NCBI GenBank assembly: GCA_042218325.1
Contig: JBDGRE010000012.1
Span: 1 to 20,279, forward strand
Direction: 5' to 3'
From: Candidatus Nanohaloarchaea archaeon
Lineage (GTDB): Archaea; Nanohalarchaeota; Nanosalinia; Nanosalinales; Nanosalinaceae
Length of the DNA: 20,279 nt
In this document: positions 294-20,279 of the stretch, piece after piece
Position numbering within the stretch: the first letter of the stretch is position 1
Layout of the letters: each line of letters starts with the position of its first letter
Position numbers and translations under genes: made by a program
Notes under the pieces: model-generated
What the model saw: only the letters and a program-made list of their open reading frames with translations
Databases searched by the model: none
What the model was told of the DNA's origin: nothing

Positions 294-1265
294 TCAGGCT
301 GCGCCGCTGAGTTCCTGTTCCGCCTGGGAAGCTGCCTGATTTTCGGACTCTGCAAGCTGCTGGCGCTCCTGCTCTATCTGCTGCATCGTCTCTCCGATAG
401 ACTGCATCTCGCCCCGGACCTGCTCTATGTGAGACTCCAGGGTCTGGACATCGCCCTTCGGGAACTCACCATGCTGCTGTGAGAACTGTGCTATCATCTC
501 CTCCAGCTCTCCAAGTTCTTCCACTATACGGGAATCCTCGCTCTCTTCCTCTTCCAGCATCTGTATCTCCTGCTTGACCTCTTCGAGCTCCTGATGTAAA
601 TCCTGGTCCGCCTTCTGCTCCAGTTGTTGAAGCTTCTCCTCGTGCTCCTGGAGCTTCTCCAGTAACTGCTGGGTCTGCTGGATCTCCCCTTCCTCGTCCT
701 GGAGTATGTTAAGGAGTTCCTGATCCTGGTTCCTCGCGTACTCTACAAGACCCTCGTAGATCTCGTCGGCTTTTTCCAGCTGCTCTCTTAACTCACGGAT
801 GGCCTCTGTACTGTACTCTATCTCTTCTACCTCGTTCAGGAACGTGGTTTCCTCTGCCTCTACGTCGGATTCCTCTTTCTGTATTAACTGCTTTATCTCC
901 TGGAGCCTGTTCTCGATATCAGAAACTTCCTGTACAACATTCTGTTCGAACTGGGACTCGAACTGCTCTATCTTCTGTATCTCCTCCTGTGAGAGCGCGC
1001 CCTGTTCCTTGTTGCTAAGTTTTCTCAGAGTTTCAGCATCACTCGTGATGAGAGAGTGGATATCGTCCAGATCGCTTTTGATCTGCTTCAGGTCCTGAAT
1101 CTCGGTTTCTTCCTCGCTTATCGTCTCCTCTTCGGCATTGACCAGTTCCTCAAGCGCCTGGATATCCCTGTCGATGGCGTCGAGCAACTCCTGCTCGCCC
1201 TCAATCTCGTTAGCTAGAGCCTGTCTCAAATCCTCTGTCAGTTCTCGTATGTCCTTTTTGCTCAT
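294..1265 (-). CDS. Acidic long coiled-coil protein, 323 aa, function unknown
   Basis: E/Q/L/I-rich heptad pattern throughout, almost no Pro or Gly, no Walker motifs; GGTGA SD at 1274-1270. Confidence 0.85.
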   Translation of the reverse strand: MSKKDIRELTEDLRQALANEIEGEQELLDAIDRDIQALEELVNAEEETISEEETEIQDLKQIKSDLDDIHSLITSDAETLRKLSNKEQGALSQEEIQKIEQFESQFEQNVVQEVSDIENRLQEIKQLIQKEESDVEAEETTFLNEVEEIEYSTEAIRELREQLEKADEIYEGLVEYARNQDQELLNILQDEEGEIQQTQQLLEKLQEHEEKLQQLEQKADQDLHQELEEVKQEIQMLEEEESEDSRIVEELGELEEMIAQFSQQHGEFPKGDVQTLESHIEQVRGEMQSIGETMQQIEQERQQLAESENQAASQAEQELSGAA

Positions 1266-5384: not shown

Positions 5385-6512
5385 ATGGCAATACTACACA
5401 AGATCCGGGACCCCGGCGGAGGCAGCCGCCGAGATTCGGCATTTTCATACGCATCAAACGGATTCAGAGCAGTAGGGCTCGACGCAGTCCCCGACAAGCT
5501 CGACGATGCAAGAGCATGGGGGATCGCAAACCCGAGGGGAGAACTCGCGGCAGTCACCATCGGACCTCCGGCAGCAGACCTCGTGTTCAACGGAGGGCAG
5601 GGCATAGATGCCTGGGGAGACTTCCTGCTCGATGGAGAGGCCGGCAGGCTGGTCGAGGAGTTCCCTCTTAACGAATACCCAGGGAACGTCATCGAGATGG
5701 CCGGCGAGACGGTCAAAGCCGGGGTGGAAACGGTTGACGAGACCCCGAACAACAGCCCCGTATACTGGCTAGGAGAGGGTATCGAAGGCCTGGGAGAACT
5801 CGTGGGAGACCCCGTGCAGTTCTTCGAGTCAGGTCTTGAAGAGGGCGGAACAGTCCATATCGGGCCTGTCGATATCGGAGTCCCGGGCTACGATGTCTCG
5901 GGAATCGGTGGGAACGACACGGAGTACTTCGACGGCTCCATACTCGACGGCTGGTTCGGCTACGAACCCTCCGACGCAGGTGGCGCAGGAACCCCGACAG
6001 CCACACCGGCTGGTACAGAGACACCCGCAGGAACCGCCACAGAGACACCAGCAGGGACGCCGGCAGAGACCTCCACTCCGGCACCAACAGAGACGTCAGG
6101 AGGTGGCGCGTGTGAACTCGACCAGGCGACACATGAGCAGCTGAACAGGAACGCCGACGCGTACAACACCCACAACATCCACAACATCGAGAGAAATGGC
6201 GAAACCCTCCAGGTAGACTACCAGGTCACGACCGAGAGCGGCGAGGAAGTCATGCAGACCGCCGAGATTTCCTACGACGAGCTCGACATGAGCAGTTCAG
6301 AGGTCGAGCTGTTCAGAAGCCTCTCCGAGTCGGAGGTCGAGAACCTGCTGGAACAGTACGCGGCGGACGAGGGCGAGGTCTGCGGCTACGACTCAGCATC
6401 TCTCGGAGCCGCTATAAGCTCCGCTGGAGGGATGGGCCGCGAAGATTACGGGAAACTGCTGGAAGGCAAAGACCGGGCGCTCGAGAACATGGACGCGCTG
6501 GGAAAGAGGTAG
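5385..6512 (+). CDS. Hypothetical acidic two-domain protein with Thr/Pro-rich linker, 375 aa
   Basis: Long acidic ORF with a good promoter; TPAGT-repeat linker; C-terminal domain bracketed by two Cys. Confidence 0.85.
   Translation: MAILHKIRDPGGGSRRDSAFSYASNGFRAVGLDAVPDKLDDARAWGIANPRGELAAVTIGPPAADLVFNGGQGIDAWGDFLLDGEAGRLVEEFPLNEYPGNVIEMAGETVKAGVETVDETPNNSPVYWLGEGIEGLGELVGDPVQFFESGLEEGGTVHIGPVDIGVPGYDVSGIGGNDTEYFDGSILDGWFGYEPSDAGGAGTPTATPAGTETPAGTATETPAGTPAETSTPAPTETSGGGACELDQATHEQLNRNADAYNTHNIHNIERNGETLQVDYQVTTESGEEVMQTAEISYDELDMSSSEVELFRSLSESEVENLLEQYAADEGEVCGYDSASLGAAISSAGGMGREDYGKLLEGKDRALENMDALGKR
5988..6098 (+). repeat. Low-complexity coding repeat (TPAGT x3, TET units)
   Basis: GTPTATPAGTETPAGTATETPAGTPAETSTPAPTETS; imperfect acagagacacc/gcagg DNA units. 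Confidence 0.7.
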
Positions 6513-6529
6513 CCCGGGCGCGACCAGAG

Positions 6530-6537
6530 TTAAAATA
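6530..6537 (+). promoter_or_regulatory. TATA box candidate
   Basis: TTAAAATA 21-28 nt upstream of in-frame ATG 6558. Confidence 0.5.
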
Positions 6538-6737
6538 GTTGTGTTTTAATCACTGTGATGTCACAAATGAGTCCGCCACGCAACCCGGCGCTCGAAGCAG
6601 CGATGAAGGCAGAGGAGGCCATAGAGGAAGCAGTATTCTACGGCAGCCTGGCCGGGCTCGGACTCGGTCTTAATGTTGATTCGTACGGTAGTTCAAAACC
6701 CCGAAAACCACGACACCAAGAAGGAGGTGAACCAGAC

Positions 6738-7142
6738 ATGACATTCGAAGACGAGACAGAGAGAGCAGAACTCGCGCTCGACGACCACGCACAGGCGAGA
6801 GAGTACATCCAGGATGCAGTCGACCGGGTGGTCGACGCAGGAGAGGATGCAGGAGAAGTAGCAGAAGGCCTATACGACGTAGTGGACGAGCTAGAGGGCA
6901 GCGCGGCAAGAGCAGTAGGCATCATGGCCGACTACCTGATGCAGGACCGCAGCGAGATGGACGACAGGGCAGTCGAGCTCCAGGACACAGCCGCAGACCT
7001 TGAGGACACAGTCACGCACGTCCTCAACGAAGCAGGAGTCACGGACCCTGACGCAGTTTACGACGCTCTCTCCCCCTCAGACGAGCACGAGGACCGCCTC
7101 GACAGGATGAGAGACAAAGTCGACAACGTCTACTTCGACTGA
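6738..7142 (+). CDS. Acidic alpha-helical protein, 134 aa (possible 60-aa N-terminal extension from ATG 6558); paralog of the N-terminal domain of 7229-8029
   Basis: Strong SD GGAGGTGA at 6723-6730; similarity to the neighbour begins right at this Met. Confidence 0.8.
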   Translation: MTFEDETERAELALDDHAQAREYIQDAVDRVVDAGEDAGEVAEGLYDVVDELEGSAARAVGIMADYLMQDRSEMDDRAVELQDTAADLEDTVTHVLNEAGVTDPDAVYDALSPSDEHEDRLDRMRDKVDNVYFD

Positions 7143-7482
7143 TCTCCACCTGTTCTTTTTTCTTCCTTCTTAACCAAAACACTTAAAAGAACAGAGTGTT
7201 ACTATCTATACATAACAACGGTGTAATCATGCCTTCGACCGACGACTACGAGGAAGCGGTAGAGCACGTGGAGCTGGCGATGGACGACCACGCCAGAGCC
7301 AGGAATCTGCTGCAGGACGCCGAGGAAAGAGTCACTACCAAAGGTATGTTTGCAGCGGCTGTGGCAGAAGGCATCTACAGGGCGAGAGACGATCTTGAGG
7401 GCGACTACGAGGAGTTCGCAAACCTTGTCCAGGACTACCTGATGCATGACAGGAGAGAGATGGACGACAGGGCAGTCGAGCT
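6954..7482 (+). repeat. 26-bp exact direct repeat in paralogous genes (6954-6979 and 7457-7482)
   Basis: gagatggacgacagggcagtcgagct occurs twice, each preceded by gactacctgatgca; encodes EMDDRAVEL. Confidence 0.9.
7152..7171 (+). terminator. Archaeal oligo-T/pyrimidine terminator candidate
   Basis: gttcttttttcttccttctt begins 10 nt after stop 7142. Confidence 0.55.
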
Positions 7483-8029
7483 GGCAAAACAGGAAGAAGT
7501 TATAGACAAGCTTATCGATGAACTTGCAGAGGAAGACAGCTCGGGAGAATTCCCGGTCACTAGAAGGGAGGCCGGCCTCGGGTTGGGCGCCGTCCTAGCC
7601 ACGGTCATCGGCGCGAACGCGCTGACCGCAGGTGGTGGAGGAGGCCAGCAGCCACGGAGAGAGACATACAGCTTCAGCAACCCGGATTCCTTCCTTGCCG
7701 CAGTAGATAAAACACAGTACAGCGTTACGGATTACATCCCTCCCAACGAGTGGGCGGAGCAGAGAAAAACAGAGGGACCGGAAGACCTGCCGGATCTCCA
7801 GAGAATCGCGAGCGAGGAGCCGATATCCTTCGATTACAGCAGCAACGGTGGCTCAACGGTCTCTGTTACCTGGGAGGTTTACGACACAGGTGAAGAGCAG
7901 TACGACGAGAACTCTGTGGAATATGATGTCCGCCAGGAACCGGCTGACGCGCTGGCCTCGGCGGCCCAAAACCTTGAAGGAGACCAGAACGCCGACCTTG
8001 AGGACGCAGGCGAGGCGCTCGAAGCTTAA
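7229..8029 (+). CDS. Single-pass membrane protein, 266 aa: N-terminal helical domain, internal RR-led hydrophobic segment, acidic C-terminal domain
   Basis: ATG 7229 with GGTG upstream and CTTAAAAG at 7182-7189; VTRREAGLGLGAVLATVIGANALTAGGGGG segment. Confidence 0.85.
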   Translation: MPSTDDYEEAVEHVELAMDDHARARNLLQDAEERVTTKGMFAAAVAEGIYRARDDLEGDYEEFANLVQDYLMHDRREMDDRAVELAKQEEVIDKLIDELAEEDSSGEFPVTRREAGLGLGAVLATVIGANALTAGGGGGQQPRRETYSFSNPDSFLAAVDKTQYSVTDYIPPNEWAEQRKTEGPEDLPDLQRIASEEPISFDYSSNGGSTVSVTWEVYDTGEEQYDENSVEYDVRQEPADALASAAQNLEGDQNADLEDAGEALEA

Positions 8030-8038
8030 ACTGATACT

Positions 8039-11000
8039 ATGAGAAGACTCACAACCGCAATCATCACCATCACACTCCTGGTTTCGACAGCAGGAGCTAT
8101 CGACATCTCATCTATGAACCTTGAGAACCCGGATGTAAAGGCCGGGAGTTCAACAGACGTGCGCGTCACAGCCACCGACTCGGGCAGCGATCCTGCAATC
8201 AACTGGATCCGGCTGTACGTAAACGGAGACCTCGTGGGCCAGAAATCATGCGGCGGCTCCGGGGACACCCACTGCTTCAGGCAGTTCGACTTCAGCCCCA
8301 GCTCATCGGGTACATACACTCTTACAGCCGTCACGTCCGACCAGCACAGTGACGACGACCTTTCCAAGACCATACAGGTAGAGTCGAGCGCCAACTCCGC
8401 GCCCGTGGTACAGGCGTTCAGCCCGACAGGCTCAGGCGTATCGACCACGCCGACGTTCGAGTTCAAGGCGACAGACGAGAGCAGCGACCTGGATTTCACG
8501 CTGTACCTCAGCAAGGGCGACAGAGACTTCACAGATTTCTCGGATAAGAGGAAAACGTTCAAGGGCGAACCTTCCGGCATCCGCATCCGGAGGACGCCGT
8601 GGAGCCTCGACAGCGGAAGCACGTACTACTGGAAGGTAAAAGCGTCGGACGGCGAGTACGACCCCACCACCAGCGTCAAGAGCTTCACGACCTCCGGCCA
8701 ACAGCAGGAGACCAGAATAACTGACTACGGCTTCGAGGGGAGCGAGCCTCTCGACCAGCGGGTGCACCTGTTCGTCGAGATAAACAGGAACCCCGACGGT
8801 GTCGAGGCATGCAAGTTCAGGAGAGGCAGCTCTATCTCGGGGACCACAGGCAACCTGATGCAGAGGGATAGCTCCACCGCTCTGAGGTGGGACAAGTTCG
8901 AATCGTTCTCGAGCGGGACGCACACTGTCGCGTTCCAGTGCTACGACTTCAACAACAACCCGATAACAGAGAAGAAAACAGTCACGTTCCGCGTCGGCGA
9001 GACAACGACCGGCAACAGCAGACCGACGGTAACGCTGCTGGAACCGAACGACGGCGCGAGGGTATCGACCAGCCCGAGATTCGAGTTCCGCGGCCGGGAC
9101 AGCGACGGCGACAGGCTTGACTACACACTTTACGTCGACAGCGACTCGACGCCGTTCCAGGGCTGGGAGCACCGGCAGACATACAGCAACAGGCGCGAAG
9201 GCGACCGTGTAAGCGTGAGACCGTTCACACTGAGAGACAACAGGGACTACAGCTGGGGTGTCAGGGTCGACGACGATGTCAACTCCCGTGAATCTTCGGT
9301 AAGGGACTTCACCACTCGCGACAGCTTCGACCGCGACAGGGATGGAAGCCTCCGTGTCACCGCGAGAGACGGAAGCGGCGACAGGTTGAGAAACGCCCGG
9401 GTAACAGTGAGGAACGGCGACAGCCGGTCCAGGTTCACCGGGAGCGACGGAGAGGCGTTCTTCTCCAGCCTCGAGCCCGACAGGTACGACGTAGAAGTAA
9501 GATGTCAGGGCCGCGAGGTCAACCGCGATGTAAGGGTCAGCAGCGGAGAATCGGAATCCATCACGGTCCGGTTCGCGCAGAGCTTCAGCAGCAACGACTG
9601 TGAAAGCGACCGGGGCGGCGGCCGTCCAGATGCGAGGCTCAGCGTGAGGCCTGACCCCGCGAACACCGGCGAACAGGTTACTTTCGACGCCCGGGACTCG
9701 CGGGCGAACGGCGGCTCCGTAGAGGAGTACTGGTTCGACATAAACGGGGACGGGGTCTACGAGATCAAGAACGACTTCGACGGCGTCGTCAGGAAGACGT
9801 TCAGCTCGACGCGTTCAAGGACCGCGAGAGTCAAGGTATTTGACAGCGAGGACCTGAGCGATAAAGCGTCCCGTTTCTACACCATCAGGAGCGGCAGGGA
9901 GAGCTGCGACGTGGACATAGGTACGCTCGGTGTCTACCCGACACGTATCGACAGGGGTGAATCGACGACCGCAGACCTGACCGTATTCAACAACATGCAG
10001 CAGGTCCAGAAGGTGAAGGTGCGGTTCGAGGCCAGCGGCAAAAGCCAGTCCTACACGCGCGACATCTCGGGCACCGGCCAGAGAAGTTTCAGCCACAGCT
10101 TCACCCTCCAAGAGGATTCCAGCGTGAAGGCGACAGTGATGACCGAGGGCGACACATGTGGTTCGAGAACCCTCTCCACGCAGTCACGGAACGTCGACGT
10201 GAGAGGAACCCGTGACAGGGACGAAGACGGCGACGCAGAGCTCACGGTAAGAGTCAGGGATGAAGACGGCGACGACCTCGAGGATGCTCGCGTAGAGGTA
10301 AGCAACGGCGGCGACGAGGTCGAGCATACTGACGACGATGGCGAGGCCAGGTTCACACTTGAACCTGACGACTACGAGGTCGAGGTCTCGAAGAGCAGTT
10401 ACCGCACCGAGACCAGGGACGTAGACCTGGACTCCGGTGACGACAGGACCCTGACCTTCAATCTCGAGAAGGGGCAACGCGGGACGACGATGGAGGCTAT
10501 AAACCATCCATCCACAGTGTGCCGGGGCAGCGACCTGTCCGTCCGTGTGCTCGTCTCCAACGGCCACGACAGGGACAGGTCGTTCGAACTCCGGGGAGAC
10601 GGTCTCGGCTCGCAGACCAGGAACAGCTTCAGGGTGCCCGAGGGCGAGAGCCGCGTGCGCACCCTGGTGTTCCCGGACGTCCAGCGGGAATCGTCCGGAT
10701 CCACCGAACGGTTCAGGGTGACCCTGCAGAACGGCGACTTCACGTCGAGGACGAGGACCATCCAGGTCGTGGAGTGTGATGGTACCGGCGCACCGGGCAC
10801 AGCTACAGGTATCAGCCTCGATGTCAGCCCGTCGAAGGTCAAGTCAGGTGAACCTGTGAAGGTCTCCGGCTACGTAGACGGCACGAGAGGCCGGAAAGAG
10901 GTAGATATCAGCGTGAACGGCAGGACTGTGGCACGCGTCAGCTCGGCGCCGGACGGCTACTACCAGGCGTTCATCACTCCCTCGGGGTCGGGCAGCAAGA

Positions 11001-11677
11001 CTGTTACCGCCTCCGTAGACTCGGAGAGGGCCTCAAGAACCGTAGAGGTCGCACCGACCGCAGGCATAGACTTCGTGGAGGCTCCCGACAGGGTCTTCCA
11101 GGGCGAGAGCTTCCAGGTCTGCGGCAACGGTGTCCGTTCACAGGTCACGCCGAAGGTGTTCCTCATAGAAGACGGCGAAGTCGTAGACTCGAGGAACGCA
11201 CAGGGCAGGGTCTGCTTCGATGTCTCGACCATGAAGACCGGCGAGCACGAGTACCGTGTCGCTGCGGTCGCCGGCAACCAGCGTGCGGTGGCCAGCAAGA
11301 AGGTCACGGTGCTCGAGACACGGGAAGAGGCGACCAATTTCCCGGACCAGATAGCATCCGTCGAGTCCGGTTCCGGGCTGGTGAAGGTCACGCTGTACAA
11401 CGATCAGGACAGTATCACGCGTTACGACCTTTCGCTGTCCGGAATCCCGGCGGACTGGGTATCGCAGAGCGAGAAGCAGGCAGTGCTCGAGCCCGGAGAG
11501 AGGCGGGAGGTCTTCTTCTACGTAACGCCCGAGGAAGAGGGAGACTACACCGCGGACCTCCGAGTCAGCAAGCAGGGAACGGTCATCCACCGCCAGGATG
11601 TCCGGATAAGCTCGGGCGGAACCACAAAACCAGAAAAGAGCCTTCTCGGGCGGGTTCTCGCCCGCCTCGGGCTCTAA
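8039..11677 (+). CDS. Large secreted multi-domain surface protein, 1212 aa (Ig/FN3-like, carboxypeptidase-regulatory-like, PKD-like, CARDB/NEW3-like modules)
   Basis: Sec signal MRRLTT...TAGA; two YxWxVxxxD...FTT modules; two NARV/DARV...TxxDGEA...LEPDxY modules; PKD-like VTFDARDS...YWFDINGDG; C-terminal amphipathic KSLLGRVLARLGL. Confidence 0.9.
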   Translation: MRRLTTAIITITLLVSTAGAIDISSMNLENPDVKAGSSTDVRVTATDSGSDPAINWIRLYVNGDLVGQKSCGGSGDTHCFRQFDFSPSSSGTYTLTAVTSDQHSDDDLSKTIQVESSANSAPVVQAFSPTGSGVSTTPTFEFKATDESSDLDFTLYLSKGDRDFTDFSDKRKTFKGEPSGIRIRRTPWSLDSGSTYYWKVKASDGEYDPTTSVKSFTTSGQQQETRITDYGFEGSEPLDQRVHLFVEINRNPDGVEACKFRRGSSISGTTGNLMQRDSSTALRWDKFESFSSGTHTVAFQCYDFNNNPITEKKTVTFRVGETTTGNSRPTVTLLEPNDGARVSTSPRFEFRGRDSDGDRLDYTLYVDSDSTPFQGWEHRQTYSNRREGDRVSVRPFTLRDNRDYSWGVRVDDDVNSRESSVRDFTTRDSFDRDRDGSLRVTARDGSGDRLRNARVTVRNGDSRSRFTGSDGEAFFSSLEPDRYDVEVRCQGREVNRDVRVSSGESESITVRFAQSFSSNDCESDRGGGRPDARLSVRPDPANTGEQVTFDARDSRANGGSVEEYWFDINGDGVYEIKNDFDGVVRKTFSSTRSRTARVKVFDSEDLSDKASRFYTIRSGRESCDVDIGTLGVYPTRIDRGESTTADLTVFNNMQQVQKVKVRFEASGKSQSYTRDISGTGQRSFSHSFTLQEDSSVKATVMTEGDTCGSRTLSTQSRNVDVRGTRDRDEDGDAELTVRVRDEDGDDLEDARVEVSNGGDEVEHTDDDGEARFTLEPDDYEVEVSKSSYRTETRDVDLDSGDDRTLTFNLEKGQRGTTMEAINHPSTVCRGSDLSVRVLVSNGHDRDRSFELRGDGLGSQTRNSFRVPEGESRVRTLVFPDVQRESSGSTERFRVTLQNGDFTSRTRTIQVVECDGTGAPGTATGISLDVSPSKVKSGEPVKVSGYVDGTRGRKEVDISVNGRTVARVSSAPDGYYQAFITPSGSGSKTVTASVDSERASRTVEVAPTAGIDFVEAPDRVFQGESFQVCGNGVRSQVTPKVFLIEDGEVVDSRNAQGRVCFDVSTMKTGEHEYRVAAVAGNQRAVASKKVTVLETREEATNFPDQIASVESGSGLVKVTLYNDQDSITRYDLSLSGIPADWVSQSEKQAVLEPGERREVFFYVTPEEEGDYTADLRVSKQGTVIHRQDVRISSGGTTKPEKSLLGRVLARLGL

Positions 11678-11768: not shown

Positions 11769-13499
11769 ATGCGATTCGACAAGATACTTGCGATAACAGC
11801 GCTCATCGTAGCTTCAACAACAGTGGCAGCGGCCAGCCCGGCCGACATGACCATCTTCCCGAAGGAGTCGAGCACAGAGGTGAACTCCTTCACATCCTAC
11901 GAGGTAACGGTGGAGAACACCGGGACCGTCAAGGACTTCTACACTCTGAGCTCCAGGGCGAAAGAGGTACGCATCGCGCCCCGGGAAGTAGAGCTCGAGC
12001 CGGGACAGAGCAAGAAGGTTAATGTATGGTACAACCCGTCCCAGGACAAGGAAGCCGGAACTTACTCCTTCTCCGTGAAGGCGACCTCGAGGGGTACAGG
12101 AAACAGCTTCTCCGTCGAGGGCACCGTAAACGTGATCAAGGACCACGAAGTCGAGGTAAGCGCCGAGCCTACCTCAAGACGTGCGTGCCTCGGGGAACAG
12201 GTAAGCTACGATATCAGGATAACCAACGAGGGGATCCAGAAGGAAGAGTTCTCGCTGTCCACCGACTACGGCCAGCTTTCCAGGAACTCGGTCTCCCTCG
12301 AAGACGATGAGACACAGACCGTCACACTTACAGCGTCGGCCGGCCAGCCGGTCGAGAGAAACTTCAACGTCGTGGCAGCATCCAAGACCAGCTACGCACA
12401 GGATATACAGAACATGGACTTCCAGTCGGTCGTCTGCTACGACTCGGAAGTGTCCATCACTCCACAGAATCAGGAGGTAGCAGCGAAGACGCAGGCAGAG
12501 TACCAGGTCACAGTAAGGAACACGGGCACGAAGGCAGACACATTCACGCTCTCGACCTCGAGAGGCGAACTTGAAGAGACCGAGCTGACTGTCAATGGCA
12601 AGTCGACCGAGTCGACGACACTCAGCTACACGCCGACAAGCCTGGGCAACCAGCGCATCACGGTAGAGGCCGCAGGCGAATCAACGAGCTCCAGCCGTGT
12701 TACTGCGCAGGTCTACAACGGCATGGACATGGACGTCAGCTTCGAGAGAAGCTCCCGTTCCGCCTGCGAGAAAGGTTCCGCGACCTACACCGCGACGGTA
12801 GAGAACAACGGTGAGGCCGAGGAGACGTTCAGCCTTGAGGCGAACCGCGGGAACCTGTCAAGAGAAGAAGTCGAGCTCGAACCAGGAGAGTCGAGAGAGG
12901 TAGAGATAACTGTCAGCTCCAGCGAGGTAAGAGAGGGCGGGACCGTCAACGTCAACCTCGCAGCGACCGCCACAACTTTCGGCGAGCCCAGGAAGACCGC
13001 GACCTCGATGTTCACTTCCTCGAACTGCTACGACCTCGAGATGAACGTCGTTCCGCGTATCGCCAGCGCAGGCGAGAACAGGAGCGTGGTCTACGAGGTA
13101 CAGCTCGAGAACCCGGGAACACGAGAGAACACCTACCACATCACGCAGGACGGTCCCTCGTGGATCTCCATCAAGCCAGAGGAAGTGACGATTCCAGCAG
13201 GCGGTAGCGACACCGTCTACATGTACGCAGGCATCCCGTTCGAGAAGGAAGGCCGCGTGCAGCTACAGGTCACCGGAGAAGGCAACCAGGTCAGGAAGTC
13301 CCAGACCGTCAAGCTGGTGATCGGCGAAGACATCAAGGACGCCATCAAGAGCGACAGGAACGCCCTGACCGGAAGCTTCAGCCGTTTCGTCTCCGGCATC
13401 AGTGACGCGGTTACCGGGTCGAGCAACATCCAGAAGGTACTGGCCTCGATAGTCATCGGCCTCGCCATCTCGCTCGTAGTCCTCTACAGCGAGTGGTGA
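11769..13499 (+). CDS. Membrane-anchored surface protein with five tandem COG1470/NEW3-like Ig repeats, 576 aa
   Basis: Signal peptide; five YxxxxxNxG...(D/E/N)x(Y/F)xLS-type repeats (NTG, NEG, NTG, NNG, NPG); C-terminal TM VLASIVIGLAISLVVLY. Confidence 0.9.
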   Translation: MRFDKILAITALIVASTTVAAASPADMTIFPKESSTEVNSFTSYEVTVENTGTVKDFYTLSSRAKEVRIAPREVELEPGQSKKVNVWYNPSQDKEAGTYSFSVKATSRGTGNSFSVEGTVNVIKDHEVEVSAEPTSRRACLGEQVSYDIRITNEGIQKEEFSLSTDYGQLSRNSVSLEDDETQTVTLTASAGQPVERNFNVVAASKTSYAQDIQNMDFQSVVCYDSEVSITPQNQEVAAKTQAEYQVTVRNTGTKADTFTLSTSRGELEETELTVNGKSTESTTLSYTPTSLGNQRITVEAAGESTSSSRVTAQVYNGMDMDVSFERSSRSACEKGSATYTATVENNGEAEETFSLEANRGNLSREEVELEPGESREVEITVSSSEVREGGTVNVNLAATATTFGEPRKTATSMFTSSNCYDLEMNVVPRIASAGENRSVVYEVQLENPGTRENTYHITQDGPSWISIKPEEVTIPAGGSDTVYMYAGIPFEKEGRVQLQVTGEGNQVRKSQTVKLVIGEDIKDAIKSDRNALTGSFSRFVSGISDAVTGSSNIQKVLASIVIGLAISLVVLYSEW

Positions 13500-13500
13500 T

Positions 13501-15120
13501 TCAGGAAAGGGAGATGCCTGTGATTTCCAGCCTCGCAGTGTGGTAGCTGGAGTCACAGAAATCCCCTACATCTTTTATCCCTATCTTCACGTCGTTCTTC
13601 CCGGGAGACAGTTCGATATCCCACTGGCCACTTTCCCTGCCGGAGCTGTCCTCCGGATCTACTGTCTTTCTCGCTTCACCGTTGACCCATACGCCCATCT
13701 CTCCAGCTGCTCGCCCATGTTCCAGCTCGTAGCTAACTGTCAGCGTACGCGAGGAGGACAGGTCATAAGTTTCTTCGAGATACGCAAAGCCGCAGTACCC
13801 GGTCGGCCCCGTATCCATGACCAGCGGGTAAGTGCCCGAGGATGAAGGTGTCTGGACAAGGCTATCGCTCCCTCCCTTCAGGTTCCTCTCCTTGAAAGTC
13901 CATCCTGTTCCGGTGCCCCCACTGTAGGAGGCGAAAGGCTCCAGCGTTTCGACCACAGTAACCTCACCCCATGTCTTCGAGCCGGCTGCGGACTGGCCGC
14001 CCTCATCTACCCTGTATATCTCTGCGGATAGCTGCCTGTCACCTGTGAGGCCGAGGTAGTCGAGATAGTGCCACTGGACTGTGCGCGCCAGCGTCTCGGT
14101 GTTACCTGTCTCCACGGTTTGCTCCCGCTTCCCTACTTTTTCTCCCCCGAGCTTCCATACAGCGCGTACGAGCTGGTCTCACTCGGCACCGTTCTTCACC
14201 CTGGCCTGGAACTGTACCTTTTCACCGGCCTCGATGAACCTGTCCGTAGTACCGACGCTTTCCAGTGTAAGGGAAGAAGCTGGTTCCGTAGAACCTGTCT
14301 CTCCTGTATCCGTTGTCTCCTGGCTGTTGGAAAGCTCGACTCGTTCCGTGTCCGATGTCCCGTAGGCCTGGTAGTGGAGGACGACCGTGCCCCTGTCGTT
14401 GCTGGAGTCGGTCTGTACTATATCATCTATCCTTGCGTAGCTGATACCGGAGATATCCATCAGGTAGTCTCCCACCCTGACCTCCCGCCTATCGCCGTTT
14501 ACCTTGATGATCGCCGTTCTGGCCGAGTTAACCGAAACGAGTTCGAAGGTCGGCTCGGATGTAGGCTGATGGTTGTCGGGTGTCGAAGGAGGGGCGGAAC
14601 CCAGGGTCTCCGGGTTGAAACGGCATGAAGACTCCATCTCCACCCAGTAACCCTTGCCCGCCCTCACGGACTGTGCGGGGACATATTCACCGGTGGAGGG
14701 ATCCCAGTGCCATATATCTCCTGTGACAGAACCCTCGCCGCATACTGATTCTATGTCAGCTATACCGTATGACTCGCTCGAGGCAGATACCATGTTCCAC
14801 CCTGGGGATAGCTGCATCGTGTCCGAGAGCTCCTGCCCGCTGTAGCTGAACTCACAGCCCCCCGTCATCCTCACCCAGTAACCCCGGAAAGGGTTCAGGG
14901 CCTCGCTGGCGACGTACTGTCCGGAGGATGGATTGTACCACCAGGGCCCGCTCTGCAGCTCGCCCCCACAGTGCTCCTGGAAGTCGCTCTTCTGCAGGCC
15001 CGTGACCTGTGGCGAGACCATGTTCCAGCCACTCACAAGCGAAACAGTGTGTGAGGAGACAGCCGAGACAGCCCCGATGTTCAAAACAAGTAGGAATGCG
15101 AAAAGCTCTCTTTTTCTCAT
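13501..15120 (-). pseudogene. Secreted surface protein (2 GWN repeats, CARDB-like module, C-terminal beta domain) interrupted by one in-frame TGA at 14181-14179
   Basis: Track ORFs 14179-15120 and 13501-14115 are in the same frame; the 63 nt between them read DQLVRAVWKLGGEKVGKREQT and complete a CARDB-like module; could be a nonsense allele, sequencing error or readthrough. Confidence 0.75.
14179..15120 (-). CDS. N-terminal 313-aa product of the split gene: signal peptide plus two LxxGWNMVS...W...GYWV repeats
   Basis: SLVSGWNMVSP...WWYNPSSGQY...GYWVRM and QLSPGWNMVSA...WHWDPSTGEY...GYWVEM; GAGGT SD overlapping the upstream stop. Confidence 0.8.
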   Translation of the reverse strand: MRKRELFAFLLVLNIGAVSAVSSHTVSLVSGWNMVSPQVTGLQKSDFQEHCGGELQSGPWWYNPSSGQYVASEALNPFRGYWVRMTGGCEFSYSGQELSDTMQLSPGWNMVSASSESYGIADIESVCGEGSVTGDIWHWDPSTGEYVPAQSVRAGKGYWVEMESSCRFNPETLGSAPPSTPDNHQPTSEPTFELVSVNSARTAIIKVNGDRREVRVGDYLMDISGISYARIDDIVQTDSSNDRGTVVLHYQAYGTSDTERVELSNSQETTDTGETGSTEPASSLTLESVGTTDRFIEAGEKVQFQARVKNGAE

Positions 15121-15129
15121 CCTGTTACC

Positions 15130-16107
15130 TCAGGAGGGTGGTGCAGGAGGAGAACCTCCATCATCCGGGTTATCGCTTCCTCCACTTGTGGTGCTGCTGG
15201 ACGAGCCGCCACGGCCCTTGACCGTTACAGAGGTCTGGGTCTCCTTCTTGTAGCCGTAGACGGCCTCGAAGGTGACTGGTATCGTTCTCTGTATATCTGT
15301 GGAACTGAAGTCCTCGAAGCCAGTGACCCTGTAGCACTTGATACCTCTCTTGCCGACCAGTTCAACCCGGTTAGGCTGGCCTTCTATCGTCTCGAAGCTC
15401 ATGCTGCCGGAGCTCCTTATCTTGATCTGGACGACATCCTCCTGCGTCCGGTCCTGCGGCCACGTCGGTGTTCCACGTCCCTCGTTCCTGACTATCAGGC
15501 ACAGGTTGCTGGACGTCGTACCGTCCTCGTAGAACACGATGGGTGTCCTCGTCCGGACCTCCATCTGGATGGGTCCGTCAGTGTTCTCTATAGCTGGCCT
15601 TGCACGGGCCTGACCGGTCTCCCGGAACCTCTGCTGGCCCATAAGCTGTATCTCTGTGGTCGCCCGTGTCCTGTACTTGAAGAATATACGGGCCATGAAG
15701 TCGTAAGGTATGACCTCCCCGTCCGACAGGTCGGGAGGTGTAACGGTCTTTGTACGCTCCTTCGGCGTCGCCGGCAATCCCGCTTCCTCGTTCGCGGGCC
15801 GCAGCGTTCCGAAATTGAAGGTTCTCGACTCTACTCCCCATTCTCTCTGGGCAGGCTGGCCGAACGGCACGTTGAACAGTGTCGCCCGCGCCTCGGTGGC
15901 CTTGAAGTCGCCCGTGTTCTTCAGGGTCAGCCTGAGAGTCGGCTCCTGGGATTCGAAAACAGTTTCAGGTATCGCAGAGAAGTTCGAGACCTGCACCGCC
16001 TGTGTCTTCGCGGCTGTATCATCGGTTGTTCCTGTATGCGCACATCCTGAAGCTATAACGACGAGAGCGAGAAAAACGAGCCCGGCGTTTCTATTTTCGG
16101 GTATCAA
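15130..16107 (-). CDS. Lipobox-containing two-beta-sandwich-domain protein (paralog 3)
   Basis: IASGC lipobox then AHTG; TTG start overlapping the upstream TGA, GAGGT SD; LKNTG, GPI, RNEGRG, YGY motifs; S/G/P-rich tail. Confidence 0.85.
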   Translation of the reverse strand: MIPENRNAGLVFLALVVIASGCAHTGTTDDTAAKTQAVQVSNFSAIPETVFESQEPTLRLTLKNTGDFKATEARATLFNVPFGQPAQREWGVESRTFNFGTLRPANEEAGLPATPKERTKTVTPPDLSDGEVIPYDFMARIFFKYRTRATTEIQLMGQQRFRETGQARARPAIENTDGPIQMEVRTRTPIVFYEDGTTSSNLCLIVRNEGRGTPTWPQDRTQEDVVQIKIRSSGSMSFETIEGQPNRVELVGKRGIKCYRVTGFEDFSSTDIQRTIPVTFEAVYGYKKETQTSVTVKGRGGSSSSTTSGGSDNPDDGGSPPAPPS

Positions 16108-16892
16108 GGTCTAACTACCTCTACATCAAGGCTTGGTGATTTGACGTATTTATAAGATGTGGAGAACACCAGGTTCCTCGCCGACGTGGAGCCTGACGAT
16201 ATCTCGCAGGAGAACGTGGTCTTACCTTCCGATACTGACTCCACCTCGCGAGGGCAGTCGCTGAAGACGGAAGAAGGCCTGTACTCCATCGTGTAGCTGG
16301 AGTCGACTCTTCCCGGCCCGGTGGGGCTGAGGCTGAACGATACCACGCCGCCGTCCTGCGGCACCGGGTTCTCGTATGTGACCTCTACTGTCACCTCGCC
16401 GTTGGAGAACTTTCTTCTCACCTCTTTCCTGTTCTCTATCTCGCTTACGGTCCTGAAGTCGGCCTTCATAGGAGACTGTTCGTTGGTGATCGCTGAAGAG
16501 TAGTCGAGGTTGAGCTGCATCGTTACCGACTGCGAGCTGAAACCGCCGAGGTCGTCCGGTGCAGTAACCGTCCATGTGCACTCCATCTCCGGCGCGAAAC
16601 CTTCACGGTACTTGCCTATCTGGGCGGGCGAGCAGCTCTTGCTTCCGGCCTGCATGAACCCGGTGTTGTACAGCGAGAGTTGGTTTATGCTCACAGGTTC
16701 CGTGTGGTAGTTCTTCAGCCTGACCCGGACGTTGGACTGCTGCCCTGTGGTCAGCTGCCGGTCAGCTATGGTGAACTCCTGCACTACCAGCCCCTGTCCG
16801 CTTTCACCGTTGCTACCGGGCGTGTCGATACCGGTATGGACGCAGCCAGATACCGCCACGACGATTGCTATCAGTGCTATCTTAGTTCGCAC
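16104..16892 (-). CDS. Lipobox-containing two-beta-sandwich-domain protein (paralog 2)
   Basis: VSGC lipobox then VHTG; GTG start with GGGTGA SD at 16904-16899; four further Cys; terminal YKY strand. Confidence 0.85.
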   Translation of the reverse strand: MRTKIALIAIVVAVSGCVHTGIDTPGSNGESGQGLVVQEFTIADRQLTTGQQSNVRVRLKNYHTEPVSINQLSLYNTGFMQAGSKSCSPAQIGKYREGFAPEMECTWTVTAPDDLGGFSSQSVTMQLNLDYSSAITNEQSPMKADFRTVSEIENRKEVRRKFSNGEVTVEVTYENPVPQDGGVVSFSLSPTGPGRVDSSYTMEYRPSSVFSDCPREVESVSEGKTTFSCEISSGSTSARNLVFSTSYKYVKSPSLDVEVVRP

Positions 16893-17820
16893 GGGGTTTC
16901 ACCCTTACAGTCCGGGAGCCTACGCTCTGGAGGTATGTGTATTCGACTTCCGCGGAGATCCGGGATATCTGGCTGGGTGCGTCCAGCTCGGATCTCTGCG
17001 GCAGGTCGAGGTTGCAGCTGATGACGCGGGACTGGCCCTCGAACATCCTTATGTCCTCGGAACTCTGGAGGTCGCATTTCTCCATGTTACCGAAGCTCTC
17101 GTCGAGCTGCAGCGGGCTGGTCGCGCTCACATGCAGGCTCTGCTCGTTTACGTCGACTACGCCCTTGTTGTAGTCCTCTCTCCTCTGGTTGCGGAGCTGC
17201 AGCAAAACCTGTAGTTGCCTTGACTCGCCGGGTTCCGTGGCGATGAACGTGGACGCCTTGCCCACGGTACTGCCGACGGTCTCTATCGCGAACAGCATAG
17301 GTCCTGAAGACGACTCCCAGGAAAGCTCCGGTGAGCCCTGGACCTCCCTCTTCTTCTTTATCTGTACCTGGCGATACGTCTGCACCGTGTAGTTGAACGG
17401 TAGCTGGACCTCCACGTCGCAGGTGTACCCTATAAGAGGTACGTCGCCCTGCTGCCGCAGCTGCCACATCAGGTTGAGCCTGTCGCCGGGCTGCAGGGTT
17501 ACGCTCCCGGCCTCCTTAGTCCCCGAGGTGGTGACGGAGAAATCCTCCTGGCTGACACTGAAGATGTCCGGGCAGTAATCCTTGAGCACGCGCTGCCCCT
17601 TGTTACCGAGACGTATCTCCGCGGGGAGCTGGCCGGTGTTCTCGAGGTCGAGCGAGACACGGGCCGATGTACCCTCGCGGATCTCCTGCGGTACCACGGA
17701 GAAAGAGTTTATGGTTATGGCCTTCGCTGACTCCTGCCTATCACCACCACCGGTGTGGATGCAGCCGGAGGCCAAGACAGCGAGCGCCAACAGACTTAAA
17801 GCAAGAGCCCGGTTCTCCAT
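16882..17820 (-). CDS. Lipobox-containing two-beta-sandwich-domain protein (paralog 1)
   Basis: LASGC lipobox then IHTG; LENTG, FNY, SGPM, LRN, YTY motifs align with the neighbours. Confidence 0.88.
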   Translation of the reverse strand: MENRALALSLLALAVLASGCIHTGGGDRQESAKAITINSFSVVPQEIREGTSARVSLDLENTGQLPAEIRLGNKGQRVLKDYCPDIFSVSQEDFSVTTSGTKEAGSVTLQPGDRLNLMWQLRQQGDVPLIGYTCDVEVQLPFNYTVQTYRQVQIKKKREVQGSPELSWESSSGPMLFAIETVGSTVGKASTFIATEPGESRQLQVLLQLRNQRREDYNKGVVDVNEQSLHVSATSPLQLDESFGNMEKCDLQSSEDIRMFEGQSRVISCNLDLPQRSELDAPSQISRISAEVEYTYLQSVGSRTVRVKPRAN

Positions 17821-17850
17821 GTTATATGGGTCTGTTTTCCGCGGTTAAAA
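17796..17850. promoter_or_regulatory. Crossed divergent promoters, each TATA box inside the opposite gene
   Basis: TTAAAG (+, 17796-17801) is 25-30 nt before ATG 17826; TTTTAA (-, 17850-17845) is 25-30 nt before ATG 17820. Confidence 0.55.
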
Positions 17851-18620
17851 GCTTTGTAACCCAGAAGTTCTGGGCGCCTGCTGCTGGCAGGGCAGCGGAC
17901 TACAACGTCTTCAACACCTCCTTTTACGCCGTGGGTTTCGCCGCGGCGGCCGCGTACATAGGTTTTCCGCTGCTGAAGCGGCTCGGTATCGAGCTCGACA
18001 GGCGTTTCTTCCTCTCCGTGACGCCCTACATCCTCCTCGGGGGCGCGGCAAGAGTTCTCGAGGACCGCGCCCTCGTCGACTCCGTGCTTCTCGTGACACC
18101 TTTCATCTACCTCGTGATGTTTGTCGCGACGATAGGAACACTTGTGGCGGCGCGTTACCTGTTCGGCGATGAATACTACCGGCCGTTCGGCCTTGTGGGC
18201 GCGGCAGGCTTCCTGATAACGGTCGCGCTCTACCAGTTCTCGAACTGGCAGGCGGTACCTCTTACCGCCGCGGTCTTCATCGCGACCGCCGGTACCGGCT
18301 ATCTCCTGCTGGAGACGTACAGGCCGGAACTCGCGGGCTACAGCTTCACCATTCCAGTCGCCGCACACTACTATGACGCTTCCACGAGCGTGGTCGCGCT
18401 GTTCTTCGGCGGCAGCGAGAAGCACCTCTTGGCGCAGTTCTTCGTCGACTTTTTCGGGCTTCCCGGCATGTTCGTCATGAAAACCGTGGTGATAGTCCCG
18501 GCGGTTTACTTCATACACCGGGATTTCGAGGGTGACAGGAAGAAGTACTACCTTTTCATAGTGGCCTTGCTCGGCCTCGCGCTCGGCACCAGGAACATTC
18601 TCTCCGTCGCCACGGCCTAG
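17826..18620 (+). CDS. DUF63 family polytopic membrane protein, 264 aa (Ali-like, putative archaeal lipoprotein lipidation factor)
   Basis: YNVFNTSFY, PYILLGGAARVLED, LVTPFIY, AHYYDASTS, EKH, LGLALGTRN motifs; about 8 TM helices; start ATG 17826 avoids overlap. Confidence 0.85.
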   Translation: MGLFSAVKSFVTQKFWAPAAGRAADYNVFNTSFYAVGFAAAAAYIGFPLLKRLGIELDRRFFLSVTPYILLGGAARVLEDRALVDSVLLVTPFIYLVMFVATIGTLVAARYLFGDEYYRPFGLVGAAGFLITVALYQFSNWQAVPLTAAVFIATAGTGYLLLETYRPELAGYSFTIPVAAHYYDASTSVVALFFGGSEKHLLAQFFVDFFGLPGMFVMKTVVIVPAVYFIHRDFEGDRKKYYLFIVALLGLALGTRNILSVATA

Positions 18621-20279
18621 TTATCCCCAGCCCGAGCTCCCGTCTCCCCACGTGCTGTCAGAACCCGAACCCCAGAGGCTGTCTGAGCTTCCGCTGCTAC
18701 CCGACGAACCCGAGCATTTTTTCGCGTTGCGCTCGAAAACGATGACCTTCTTGATGTCGGTCCTCTTCTGCTCCAGCCCCGATGCTGTACACGGCGCGTC
18801 ACGTCCAAGCCTCTCGAACTCCACTTCCAAGCCTCTCGACGTCCTTACGCTTGCGAGCGCGAAGTTCTTGTTGTCGCCGCTCGTCATCCTTTCGATTGTG
18901 TTCCGGTCGAGGCCTATCGCGTACTCCGCGCTTGCGCGGGAGTTAGGCAGCTGGCCTGCGTTGAAGGCTATCTCTCCCTGCTCCAGCTTCTTGTCCAGCT
19001 TGCTGCCGCCCGTCATCAGCTGCTTGCTCCACTCGTTGCTGCGGCCGTCTCCGTCCTCCTTAGGCCCCTTCACGACGGAGCACCCGTTGCCCGCGTCCAC
19101 GCCGGTGCATCTCGTCAGGTAATGGTAATCCCGGTGAGTATCGTTGTACTGCTGTGTGACGAGCAGCGGGCAGTCGTACCTCGCGCTGCACCGCGAGTTC
19201 GAGACCTTGAAGCTGTCGATCTTCTCCTCGAGTGCAACAGTGTACTCGGCCTCCACGCCCATCGTGAGGGTCTCTCCTGACGGGCTGATGTCCGATGGGT
19301 CTTCCAGCCTCATGACGCACCCGAATATAGGCGGCTTCTGGGCCCTTGTGAACCAGAGCGGGCGGTCGCTGGCCGAGGAGATGATGTTTCTCTTCGCCCG
19401 CTGCTTCAGCTGCAGCATGTTATCGCCTGACGGGATGAACTGGCATTCACGGGAGCTATCCTGGTATATAGTTGTTTCCTGCGAGTTCCTCACCTTGAGA
19501 TCCTTCACCTTGTACCTGAGGTCGAACTCCTGCGTGTCGAGCGAGGCCCTGACCGCGAACGGCTGCGCCGCATCCTCCGCGGACTGTCCCTCCTTGAGAG
19601 CCTGGGAATCGTAGAGGACCGGCGAGTTGACGTTGATGGACGCCTTCACGGGTGTGTCCGCGGTCTTCGACTCCTTCATGCTTTTCTCGATGTTCGGGTT
19701 GGACTGGAGATTCTGCAGGCTCATGGCCTGGAAGTAAAGCGTGGACTGTGAGAAGTAATCGTACCGGACCTCGAGCATCACGGTCCTGTACTCACCGAGC
19801 GCCGGCTGGAGCATATTACAGTCCTCAAGAGTGAAGTCGTCACCGTTCTCGTTCCCTTTTATACGCTGGAAACCCGTCGACGCCGACGTACCAGGGTAGA
19901 TGTCGTTGCCTTTCCACGGTTCCCGGGCGTCTTCACGTATATCGTACGCCTTCACAGGTATCCAGCCGGTGTCGCAGTACTCTTTCCTGCTGTCTATGAC
20001 CCTGAGCCGGTAGCTGACGTTCTCGGCGTTCAGGCCTTTCAGGCCGTGCCGGGGGTTGGATATGGTGAACGAGACGGGTATAGCGTAGTCGGTGTTCTTG
20101 TAGGCCACGTCCAAGCCGGAGCCCTGGCCGATATCGAACCTCTCGATCTTCAGGCCGTACTGCTCCCCCACGTCCTCGGATCCAGGCCTCTCCGTGTTGT
20201 TCTGCTGCCACTGCCTGAAACACGCCGGGCCTTTCGCGAAGCAGCCTATCTTGGCCGCGGTCTGGCTCAGCATCGCCGA
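18621..20279 (-). CDS. Large Cys-rich member of the same two-beta-sandwich family with a C-terminal extension; 5'-truncated
   Basis: Frame stays open to the window end (TCG GCG ATG...); GLKIERF, YDYFSQSTL, DTPVKASI, GCVM, EYTV align with the three lipoproteins; stop abuts the DUF63 stop with 0 bp gap. Confidence 0.85.
   Translation of the reverse strand, partial: SAMLSQTAAKIGCFAKGPACFRQWQQNNTERPGSEDVGEQYGLKIERFDIGQGSGLDVAYKNTDYAIPVSFTISNPRHGLKGLNAENVSYRLRVIDSRKEYCDTGWIPVKAYDIREDAREPWKGNDIYPGTSASTGFQRIKGNENGDDFTLEDCNMLQPALGEYRTVMLEVRYDYFSQSTLYFQAMSLQNLQSNPNIEKSMKESKTADTPVKASINVNSPVLYDSQALKEGQSAEDAAQPFAVRASLDTQEFDLRYKVKDLKVRNSQETTIYQDSSRECQFIPSGDNMLQLKQRAKRNIISSASDRPLWFTRAQKPPIFGCVMRLEDPSDISPSGETLTMGVEAEYTVALEEKIDSFKVSNSRCSARYDCPLLVTQQYNDTHRDYHYLTRCTGVDAGNGCSVVKGPKEDGDGRSNEWSKQLMTGGSKLDKKLEQGEIAFNAGQLPNSRASAEYAIGLDRNTIERMTSGDNKNFALASVRTSRGLEVEFERLGRDAPCTASGLEQKRTDIKKVIVFERNAKKCSGSSGSSGSSDSLWGSGSDSTWGDGSSGWG

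Follow-up and report, generated by a model that had tools for sequence, protein, structure and literature searches.

The window analysed here is the entire contig C4 (JBDGRE010000012.1, 20,279 bp) of a Candidatus Nanohaloarchaea archaeon whose genome, referred to as G000, is 1.07 Mb and 96% complete. It carries a gene of the DUF63 family, the family of the Haloferax volcanii lipidation protein AliA, start-to-start with an operon of three genes for putative lipoproteins that we call LipA, LipB and LipC. Our analysis suggests that this locus is probably the nanohaloarchaeal form of an old surface-protein module, in which a DUF63 enzyme is paired with dedicated substrates. The broader statement, that an Ali-family enzyme is tightly and ancestrally linked to lipobox substrates, holds. 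The evidence lies in the gene structure of the locus, the family membership of the enzyme, the paralogy of the Lip proteins and the invariance of their lipoboxes, a conserved linkage and a predicted fold; because paralogy, lipobox and adjacency recur in dozens of related genomes, the arrangement is more than chance. The original prediction for this DNA, made from its letters, had seen a lipid-anchored surface structure encoded together with its maturation enzyme. Its observation is confirmed and its interpretation partly supported; the heteromeric lattice or host-attachment apparatus that it proposed may be what the Lip proteins and a larger relative, Big, assemble into. The main features, with lengths in amino acids (aa), are:

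15130-16107, minus strand: LipC, 325 aa, Cys22, signal peptide ending ...IASGC
16104-16892, minus strand: LipB, 262 aa, Cys17, signal peptide ending ...AVSGC
16882-17820, minus strand: LipA, 312 aa, Cys20, signal peptide ending ...LASGC; leads the three-gene overlapping operon
17796-17850, no strand: putative divergent promoter region, with TATA-like boxes inside the opposing first codons
17826-18620, plus strand: DUF63 gene, 264 aa, PF01889
18621-20279, minus strand: Big ectodomain, 552 aa; the open reading frame (ORF) runs past the contig end

The presence of three overlapping lipobox-protein genes is borne out by the ORFs themselves, by overlaps of 11 nt (LipA/LipB) and 4 nt (LipB/LipC) and by an invariant Gly-Cys pair in each product. 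The ATG of the DUF63 gene lies 5 bp from that of LipA (17820) on the opposite strand, start-to-start, and both the coordinates and the PF01889 match agree with the adjacency originally described. At its other end, the DUF63 stop codon is directly abutted by that of Big.

The product of 17826-18620 matches PF01889 over its full length (E 3.8e-41, 142.6 bits against a cut-off of 25; residues 7-260 of 264, profile positions 1-264 of 269), so that the suspected family membership was upheld by the profile search. A PF01889 profile scan found the gene to be single-copy in the source genome, and the same model also matches in the H. volcanii control genome. The protein has at least six hydrophobic segments on the Kyte-Doolittle scale, one of them of double-transmembrane length, and retains R76, E79-D80, H181, D184, E198-K199-H200, K219 and R256, the residues that are invariant in an alignment with the Methanoperedens-like proteins P0043 and P0044 and other DUF63 proteins; D80, D184 and E198 are among those invariant with the euryarchaeal members. 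Judged by its sequence, it is a bona fide member of the DUF63/Ali family. In H. volcanii, HVO_2859 (arCOG02177) has been identified as AliA and HVO_2611 (arCOG02178) as AliB, and an aliA/aliB double mutant loses thioether-linked archaeol from its lipoproteins (PMC12462473). The term DUF63 is not used in that study; the membership of AliA in DUF63 stated in the original prediction proved correct through a table in PMC9426492, where HVO_2859 is listed as 'DUF63 family protein'. Since HVO_2859 is both AliA and annotated as DUF63, and since PF01889 matches in H. volcanii, DUF63 and Ali can be equated at the family level. The retained residues fit the description of arCOG02177 as a polytopic protein of about seven transmembrane helices with conserved Glu and Asp in its loops (PMC5898192), and also the two conserved Arg reported for AliA, where AliB is reported to have His (PMC12462473).

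The window protein thus resembles AliA and AliB in its Pfam family, its polytopic character, its acidic residues, a pair of conserved Arg like that described for AliA and, as predicted here, its lipobox-Cys substrates. It differs in being 264 aa long with about 29% identity to alignable euryarchaeal homologs, in being encoded by a single copy without an AliB-like partner, and in belonging to an organism without the core lipid synthesis genes. The setting differs too: the main text of PMC12462473 gives IMP, a metal-binding protein, GldA and SpoIIM as the neighbours of AliA and describes aliB alone as 'often near lipoproteins', whereas here an AliA-like gene faces its putative substrates start-to-start. 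The same logic is seen in bacterial Lgt, also a polytopic transferase, which places membrane lipid on the +1 Cys of the lipobox after Sec export.

LipA, LipB and LipC are full-length paralogs. HHalign aligns them over 238-287 columns with probabilities of 98.4-99.4% (E 1e-14 to 1e-21), the LipA-LipC pair giving 99.4% and the LipA-LipB pair 98.4%, and the similarity detected between them by BLASTP is mostly N-terminal. Each N-terminus consists of a short charged stretch, a hydrophobic stretch and then ASGC (LipA, LipC) or VSGC (LipB). The last two residues are invariant in the alignments, namely G19 and C20 in 29 LipA sequences, G16 and C17 in 30 LipB sequences, which have four further invariant Cys, and G21 and C22 in 30 LipC sequences. 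We defined the lipobox motif as an n-h signal peptide followed by [L/V/I][A/S/T/V/I][G/A/S]C, which the V-S-G-C of LipB fits. C20, C17 and C22 are the positions at which DUF63 would be expected to lipidate the three proteins. The AlphaFold2 (AF2) model of LipC (predicted local distance difference test, pLDDT, 87.3; predicted template modelling score, pTM, 0.78) consists of two beta-sandwich domains linked by strands of about 25 residues. Pfam holds no family for LipA-C, for Big or for a protein of about 380 aa encoded upstream of Big, and fold searches returned generic immunoglobulin (Ig)-like matches and nothing more. Whole-model template modelling scores were 0.1-0.27 for integrin calf, FnBPA/ClfB, RbmA, alpha-2-macroglobulin MG, VPS26/arrestin and the AglB/STT3 C-terminal part; for the modelled fold, none of these matches is prominent and none implies a function. 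A complex prediction with mature LipA, LipB and LipC had a score of 0.00 and a mark of 0.32, with controls not run, and is uninformative either way.

The two facing start codons appear to share a control region embedded in coding sequence. A TTAAAA box at 17845-17850 (TTTTAA on the minus strand) lies within the V-K-S codons of DUF63, 24 nt upstream of the LipA ATG, and a TTAAAG box at 17796-17801 on the plus strand lies inside the signal-peptide codons of LipA, 24 nt upstream of the DUF63 ATG. In f1, the family to which the source genome belongs, the start codons of DUF63 and Lip are -2 to 13 nt apart in all 28 loci, out of 30, that could be parsed; the TTAAAA box inside the DUF63 gene was likewise seen in 28 of 30 loci, in codons V/I-K-S/R/N, and stands about 23-26 nt from the LipA start in the other loci worked through. 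Loci in which DUF63 lacks two residues at its N-terminus have a gap wider by about 5 nt, which keeps the distance from box to LipA. The box upstream of DUF63, TTAAA(G/A)-like, varies more among loci. Leaderless transcripts with a TATA box at about this distance from the start are familiar from archaeal promoters, and the two boxes would on this basis be the TATA boxes of two leaderless divergent transcripts. A scan for sigma-70 promoters and terminators is uninformative for an archaeon.

The pairing is widely conserved in the nanohaloarchaeal phylum. Within the class, the DUF63 protein search gave matches in 62 of 70 genomes and the LipC profile search in 64 of 70, including all 28 of high quality. 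The locus was mapped in 50 further genomes, 51 with G000, and in 46 of these, covering all five families of the phylum, DUF63 stands start-to-start with a Lip gene. The exceptions are three genomes in which DUF63 adjoins the gene for the ~380-aa protein and the Lip genes lie elsewhere (G003, G004, G006) and two with no DUF63 between Big and LipA (G046, G047). In f1, the order runs from Pelota through the ~380-aa N-anchored protein, Big, LipA, LipB and LipC, with DUF63 antisense between Big and LipA, to two genes for Ig-domain proteins, Ig576 and p1212, on the opposing strand. The position of DUF63 is before LipA in f1 and between LipB and LipC in f5, and a single Lip gene faces it in f3; its place in the module has thus shifted from one family to another, with a Lip start still opposite it.

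The Lip family as a whole is large. The LipC profile matches 2659 representatives (50% identity) at E<=1e-3, some of the weak matches possibly covering the first Ig-like domain alone, 1063 at E<=1e-10 and 224 at E<=1e-30. LipC is the Lip member nearest to homologs outside the phylum, and BLASTP links it to all 15 distant homologs sampled as well as to LipA and LipB. A lipobox-like N-terminus is present in all 18 distant members fetched. One of 20 distant homolog clusters bears an organism name, Aenigmarchaeota, and in a language-model atlas the nearest clusters are archaeal, most often Aenigmatarchaeota, without a Pfam family. Three distant Lip homologs served to find 17 unlabelled metagenome loci outside the phylum, six of them with long flanks. 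Those that are long enough hold two to four tandem lipobox Lip genes; five loci encode Big-like proteins, four long loci carry a Pelota gene (eRF1_1-3), and in L153, L157 and L163 Pelota and an N-anchored protein of about 255 aa precede a Big-like protein of 800-930 aa. DUF63 was found in none of the 17 loci, the six with long flanks included, and the synteny of DUF63 with this family, proposed as a means of checking the system, stands within the phylum and not in these loci outside it. From the existence of Lip modules without DUF63 in these metagenomes it follows that the module is older than the arrival of DUF63 in it, an insertion confined to the nanohaloarchaeal phylum. The original prediction had missed that the Lip/Big module far exceeds its DUF63 linkage in age and spread.

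It is possible that the Lip family corresponds to cls.004306 (NEQ255), a DPANN-specific 'secreted protein' listed in a table of PMC6393860 beside arCOG02487 and S-layer-like proteins. By description, both are DPANN-restricted, unannotated, secreted and found beside Ig-domain 'S-layer-like' proteins, as Lip is beside Ig576 and p1212; that paper makes no mention of a lipobox, of tandem paralogs or of a link to arCOG02177. Separately, P0162, a protein of 4048 aa in the public set, has 25 separate stretches that match the first Lip Ig-like domain and, from these matches, is a giant surface protein made from the same Ig-like module.

The gene beyond DUF63, which had been taken for a fourth and larger paralog, does appear distantly akin to LipC, but it lacks a lipobox, has transmembrane helices for an anchor and is incomplete because the contig stops within it, and BLASTP of Big against the Lip proteins gave no match. 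HHalign aligns Big with LipC over 161-162 columns (86.7-89.2%, E 2e-6 to 4e-6), with LipA and LipB reaching probabilities of 2-3.5%. Big orthologs of 692-1157 aa have several N-terminal transmembrane helices, a charged linker, further transmembrane helices and no lipobox. The fragment in the window is the complete Big ectodomain. Its 5' transmembrane region lies on contig C6, whose start overlaps the end of C4 by 55 nt; the two contigs are contiguous, and C6, like the complete relatives, encodes the N-terminal transmembrane region of Big, Pelota, an HtrA-like protease and the N-anchored protein of ~380 aa. The AF2 model of the ectodomain (pLDDT 84) has a LipC-like order of elements, including two strands of about 25 residues, followed by an extra C-terminal domain at about residues 370-525, and the Foldseek lists of Big and LipC are alike. 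Big thus appears, from profiles and models, to be a distant and differently anchored relative of the Lip proteins whose ectodomain opens with a Lip-like fold. The ~380-aa upstream protein shows no relation to the Lip or Big families in HHalign (probability <5%).

Taken together, these data suggest the following model. The single Ali-type gene sits antisense inside a module of Pelota, the ~380-aa protein, Big and three Lip genes, and enzyme and substrates would be transcribed divergently from one compact control region, their starts 5 bp apart. One overlapping operon would give rise to LipA, LipB and LipC, which Sec would export. DUF63 would then attach a membrane lipid through a thioether to Cys20 of LipA, Cys17 of LipB and Cys22 of LipC, the role demonstrated by genetics and chemistry for AliA/AliB in H. 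volcanii, and removal of the signal peptide would leave three two-domain beta-sandwich proteins tethered on the outer membrane face, beside the Big ectodomain with its same fold and helical anchor. The lipid would be derived from the host, because the genes for its synthesis were not found: profiles for geranylgeranylglyceryl phosphate (GGGP) synthase (PF01884), CarS/CDP-archaeol synthase (PF01864) and CDP-alcohol phosphatidyltransferases (PF01066) are without a match in the 96%-complete genome, in keeping with the statement of the original prediction that nanohaloarchaea lack archaeal lipid synthesis. The missing genes fit a host-derived donor and are no proof of it, and the genome does hold one gene for a UbiA-family prenyltransferase.

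That UbiA-family gene is one of several observations that count against this model, and the others are best weighed with the explanations that they would favour. The assignment of the enzyme to the AliA-like subtype is not proven, since it relies on R76 and R256, which are invariant or nearly so in alignments that contain neither HVO_2859 nor HVO_2611. The linkage to Lip is lineage-specific: besides its absence from the 17 metagenome loci, the flanks, of up to 7 kb each, of 80 DUF63 genes from Euryarchaeota contain no Lip-family ORF. This absence outside the phylum speaks for an alternative in which DUF63 is the all-purpose housekeeping transferase for the lipoproteins of the cell, or else remodels membranes, as was suggested for it before 2024, and in which its position reflects compaction and inherited gene order. 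Such an explanation, which we regard as unlikely, also draws on the earlier association of arCOG02177 with SpoIIM and GldA, and not with lipoproteins (PMC12462473, PMC5898192), and on the gene order that relatives share anyway, with Pelota and HtrA nearby. It does not sit easily with a gene that has moved between families and in most of them still faces a Lip start codon, or with the conservation of the start-to-start spacing and of the embedded boxes. Moreover, if LipA-C were the sole lipobox proteins of the cell, a 'general' transferase and a 'dedicated' one would here be the same thing. We scanned all ORFs of the genome with a strict and a loose regular expression (the latter allowing Cys up to position 50), a heuristic used without a positive control on unrelated lipoproteins, and counted 6 and 15 candidates, respectively, after removal of nested frames. 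A canonical n-h-lipobox is present in LipA, LipB and LipC only, i.e. in 3 of the 6 and 3 of the 15; the other candidates look like transmembrane helices inside proteins, implausible frames or, with the motif FAGCGG, a methyltransferase-like sequence. LipA-C are thus apparently the only convincing lipobox ORFs of the genome.

A further complication is the existence of second DUF63 copies. Some f1 genomes carry a standalone DUF63 (L060-L063, L065, L069-L071), and in several of these the copy in the cluster is shortened (187-236 aa) or gone (G046, G047); the genera concerned are g3, g12 and g15. The Lip lipoboxes persist there, so that some genomes can do without the cluster DUF63. A quick tree, unrooted, places the f1 cluster copies in a separate, long-branched clade and groups the standalone DUF63 with the cluster-embedded copies of f4 and f5. 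Both the long branch and the truncated or missing copies would be accounted for if the cluster DUF63 were a paralog that is diverging towards loss or a new role, the Lip proteins being lipidated by another, unrecognised enzyme. We think this quite improbable for the window, where the DUF63 gene is the only one of the genome and its product is full length and keeps all the residues invariant with euryarchaeal homologs. It is the standalone copy that has lost residues, with Gln, Gly, Gln and Gln in place of His, Asp, Glu and His and both Arg kept. Since G000 has a single intact DUF63 and no standalone copy, the question of which copy is ancestral does not arise there. Equally improbable, in our view, is that the Gly-Cys is no lipidation site, the Lips being ordinary secreted or N-anchored proteins with Cys for disulfides or another use and DUF63 acting elsewhere: the A-S-G-C of LipA and LipC does have Ala at -3, outside the canonical [L/V/I], the mature parts do hold several other invariant Cys that suggest disulfides, and the literature searched contains no experimental case of lipidation in DPANN, but in about 90 Lip sequences the Cys, at position 17-22, comes straight after an n-h region of the typical kind, the 18 distant homologs are alike in this, and predicted lipoproteins are reported to be prevalent in DPANN (PMC12462473).

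The remaining genes of the window that concern the locus lie on the far side of LipC:

13501-15120, minus strand: gene in a variable slot, consisting of the GWN ORF and a 204-aa ORF in one frame split by a TGA
11769-13499, plus strand: Ig576, with a signal peptide, about five Ig/CARDB-like domains and a C-terminal transmembrane helix; matches Pfam Ig-like families
8039-11677, plus strand: p1212, a large secreted multi-Ig/CarboxypepD_reg protein (Pfam) upstream of Ig576

The secreted GWN-repeat protein had been counted as part of the system. Its ORF (14179-15120, minus strand) does encode a secreted-type, non-lipobox signal peptide and two repeats of about 70 aa (GWNMVS...C...GYWV.M...C.F), but we dropped it as a fourth component: it occupies a variable slot, its frame is interrupted, and no homolog at E<=1e-3 was found in 40 related loci searched, where the 204-aa downstream part (13501-14115) has two weak matches. 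The two ORFs share one frame, split by a lone TGA at 14179-14181. In the contigs of three of four runs, these from two studies, C14180>G on the plus strand turns the TGA into TCA (Ser), and the run that matches the window keeps the TGA; the window strain has either a nonsense allele or an assembly error at this position. The GWN gene is strain-specific, interrupted and outside the module. NCBIfam holds no family for the DUF63 protein, LipA-C, GWN, p204 or Big.

Ig576, convergent with LipC, surpasses all other proteins of the region in conservation, with orthologs in 26 of 31 cluster loci (E 1e-93 to 1e-202) and E-values down to 1e-241 in further loci, and p1212 is a conserved neighbour too by synteny across the phylum. 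Both may be envelope (S-layer-like) proteins. Upstream of p1212, three ORFs of 375, 195 and 277 aa (5385-8029, plus strand) are blank in Pfam; an ORF at the same place also precedes p1212 in relatives. Near the contig start, a 323-aa ORF (294-1265, minus strand) weakly matches PF13949, the ALIX V-shaped domain (E 6e-9), and is probably a coiled-coil protein.

The enzymes of archaeal lipoprotein lipidation became known only in 2024-2025, from a single haloarchaeon that has two such paralogs and substrates by the hundreds. The enzyme described here is itself a member of that known family; as far as our searches show, the fixed enzyme-substrate pair, the apparently three-substrate system and the Lip/Big module are undescribed, the literature searched containing no account of the pairing or the module, with the proviso that the supplementary tables of PMC12462473 on gene neighbourhoods and lipoproteins, not covered, may list the adjacency. 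With its putative promoters inside coding sequence, the locus would illustrate compactly how leaderless genes can diverge from one another. A more far-reaching idea, possible although we doubt it, is that the Pelota-linked module is a DPANN-wide host-contact apparatus, perhaps one that holds or takes up lipid of the host, to which the nanohaloarchaea hard-wired an Ali enzyme and an anchor of scavenged archaeol; with a lone enzyme and three substrates, it would then be the smallest lipoprotein system known. A genome that joins a lone Ali gene to what look like three substrates would offer a natural setting in which to test how such an enzyme recognises its substrates and which lipid is used by a cell that does not make its own, and the Lip family emerges as a large uncharacterised family of surface proteins of small symbiotic archaea, held in a conserved module.

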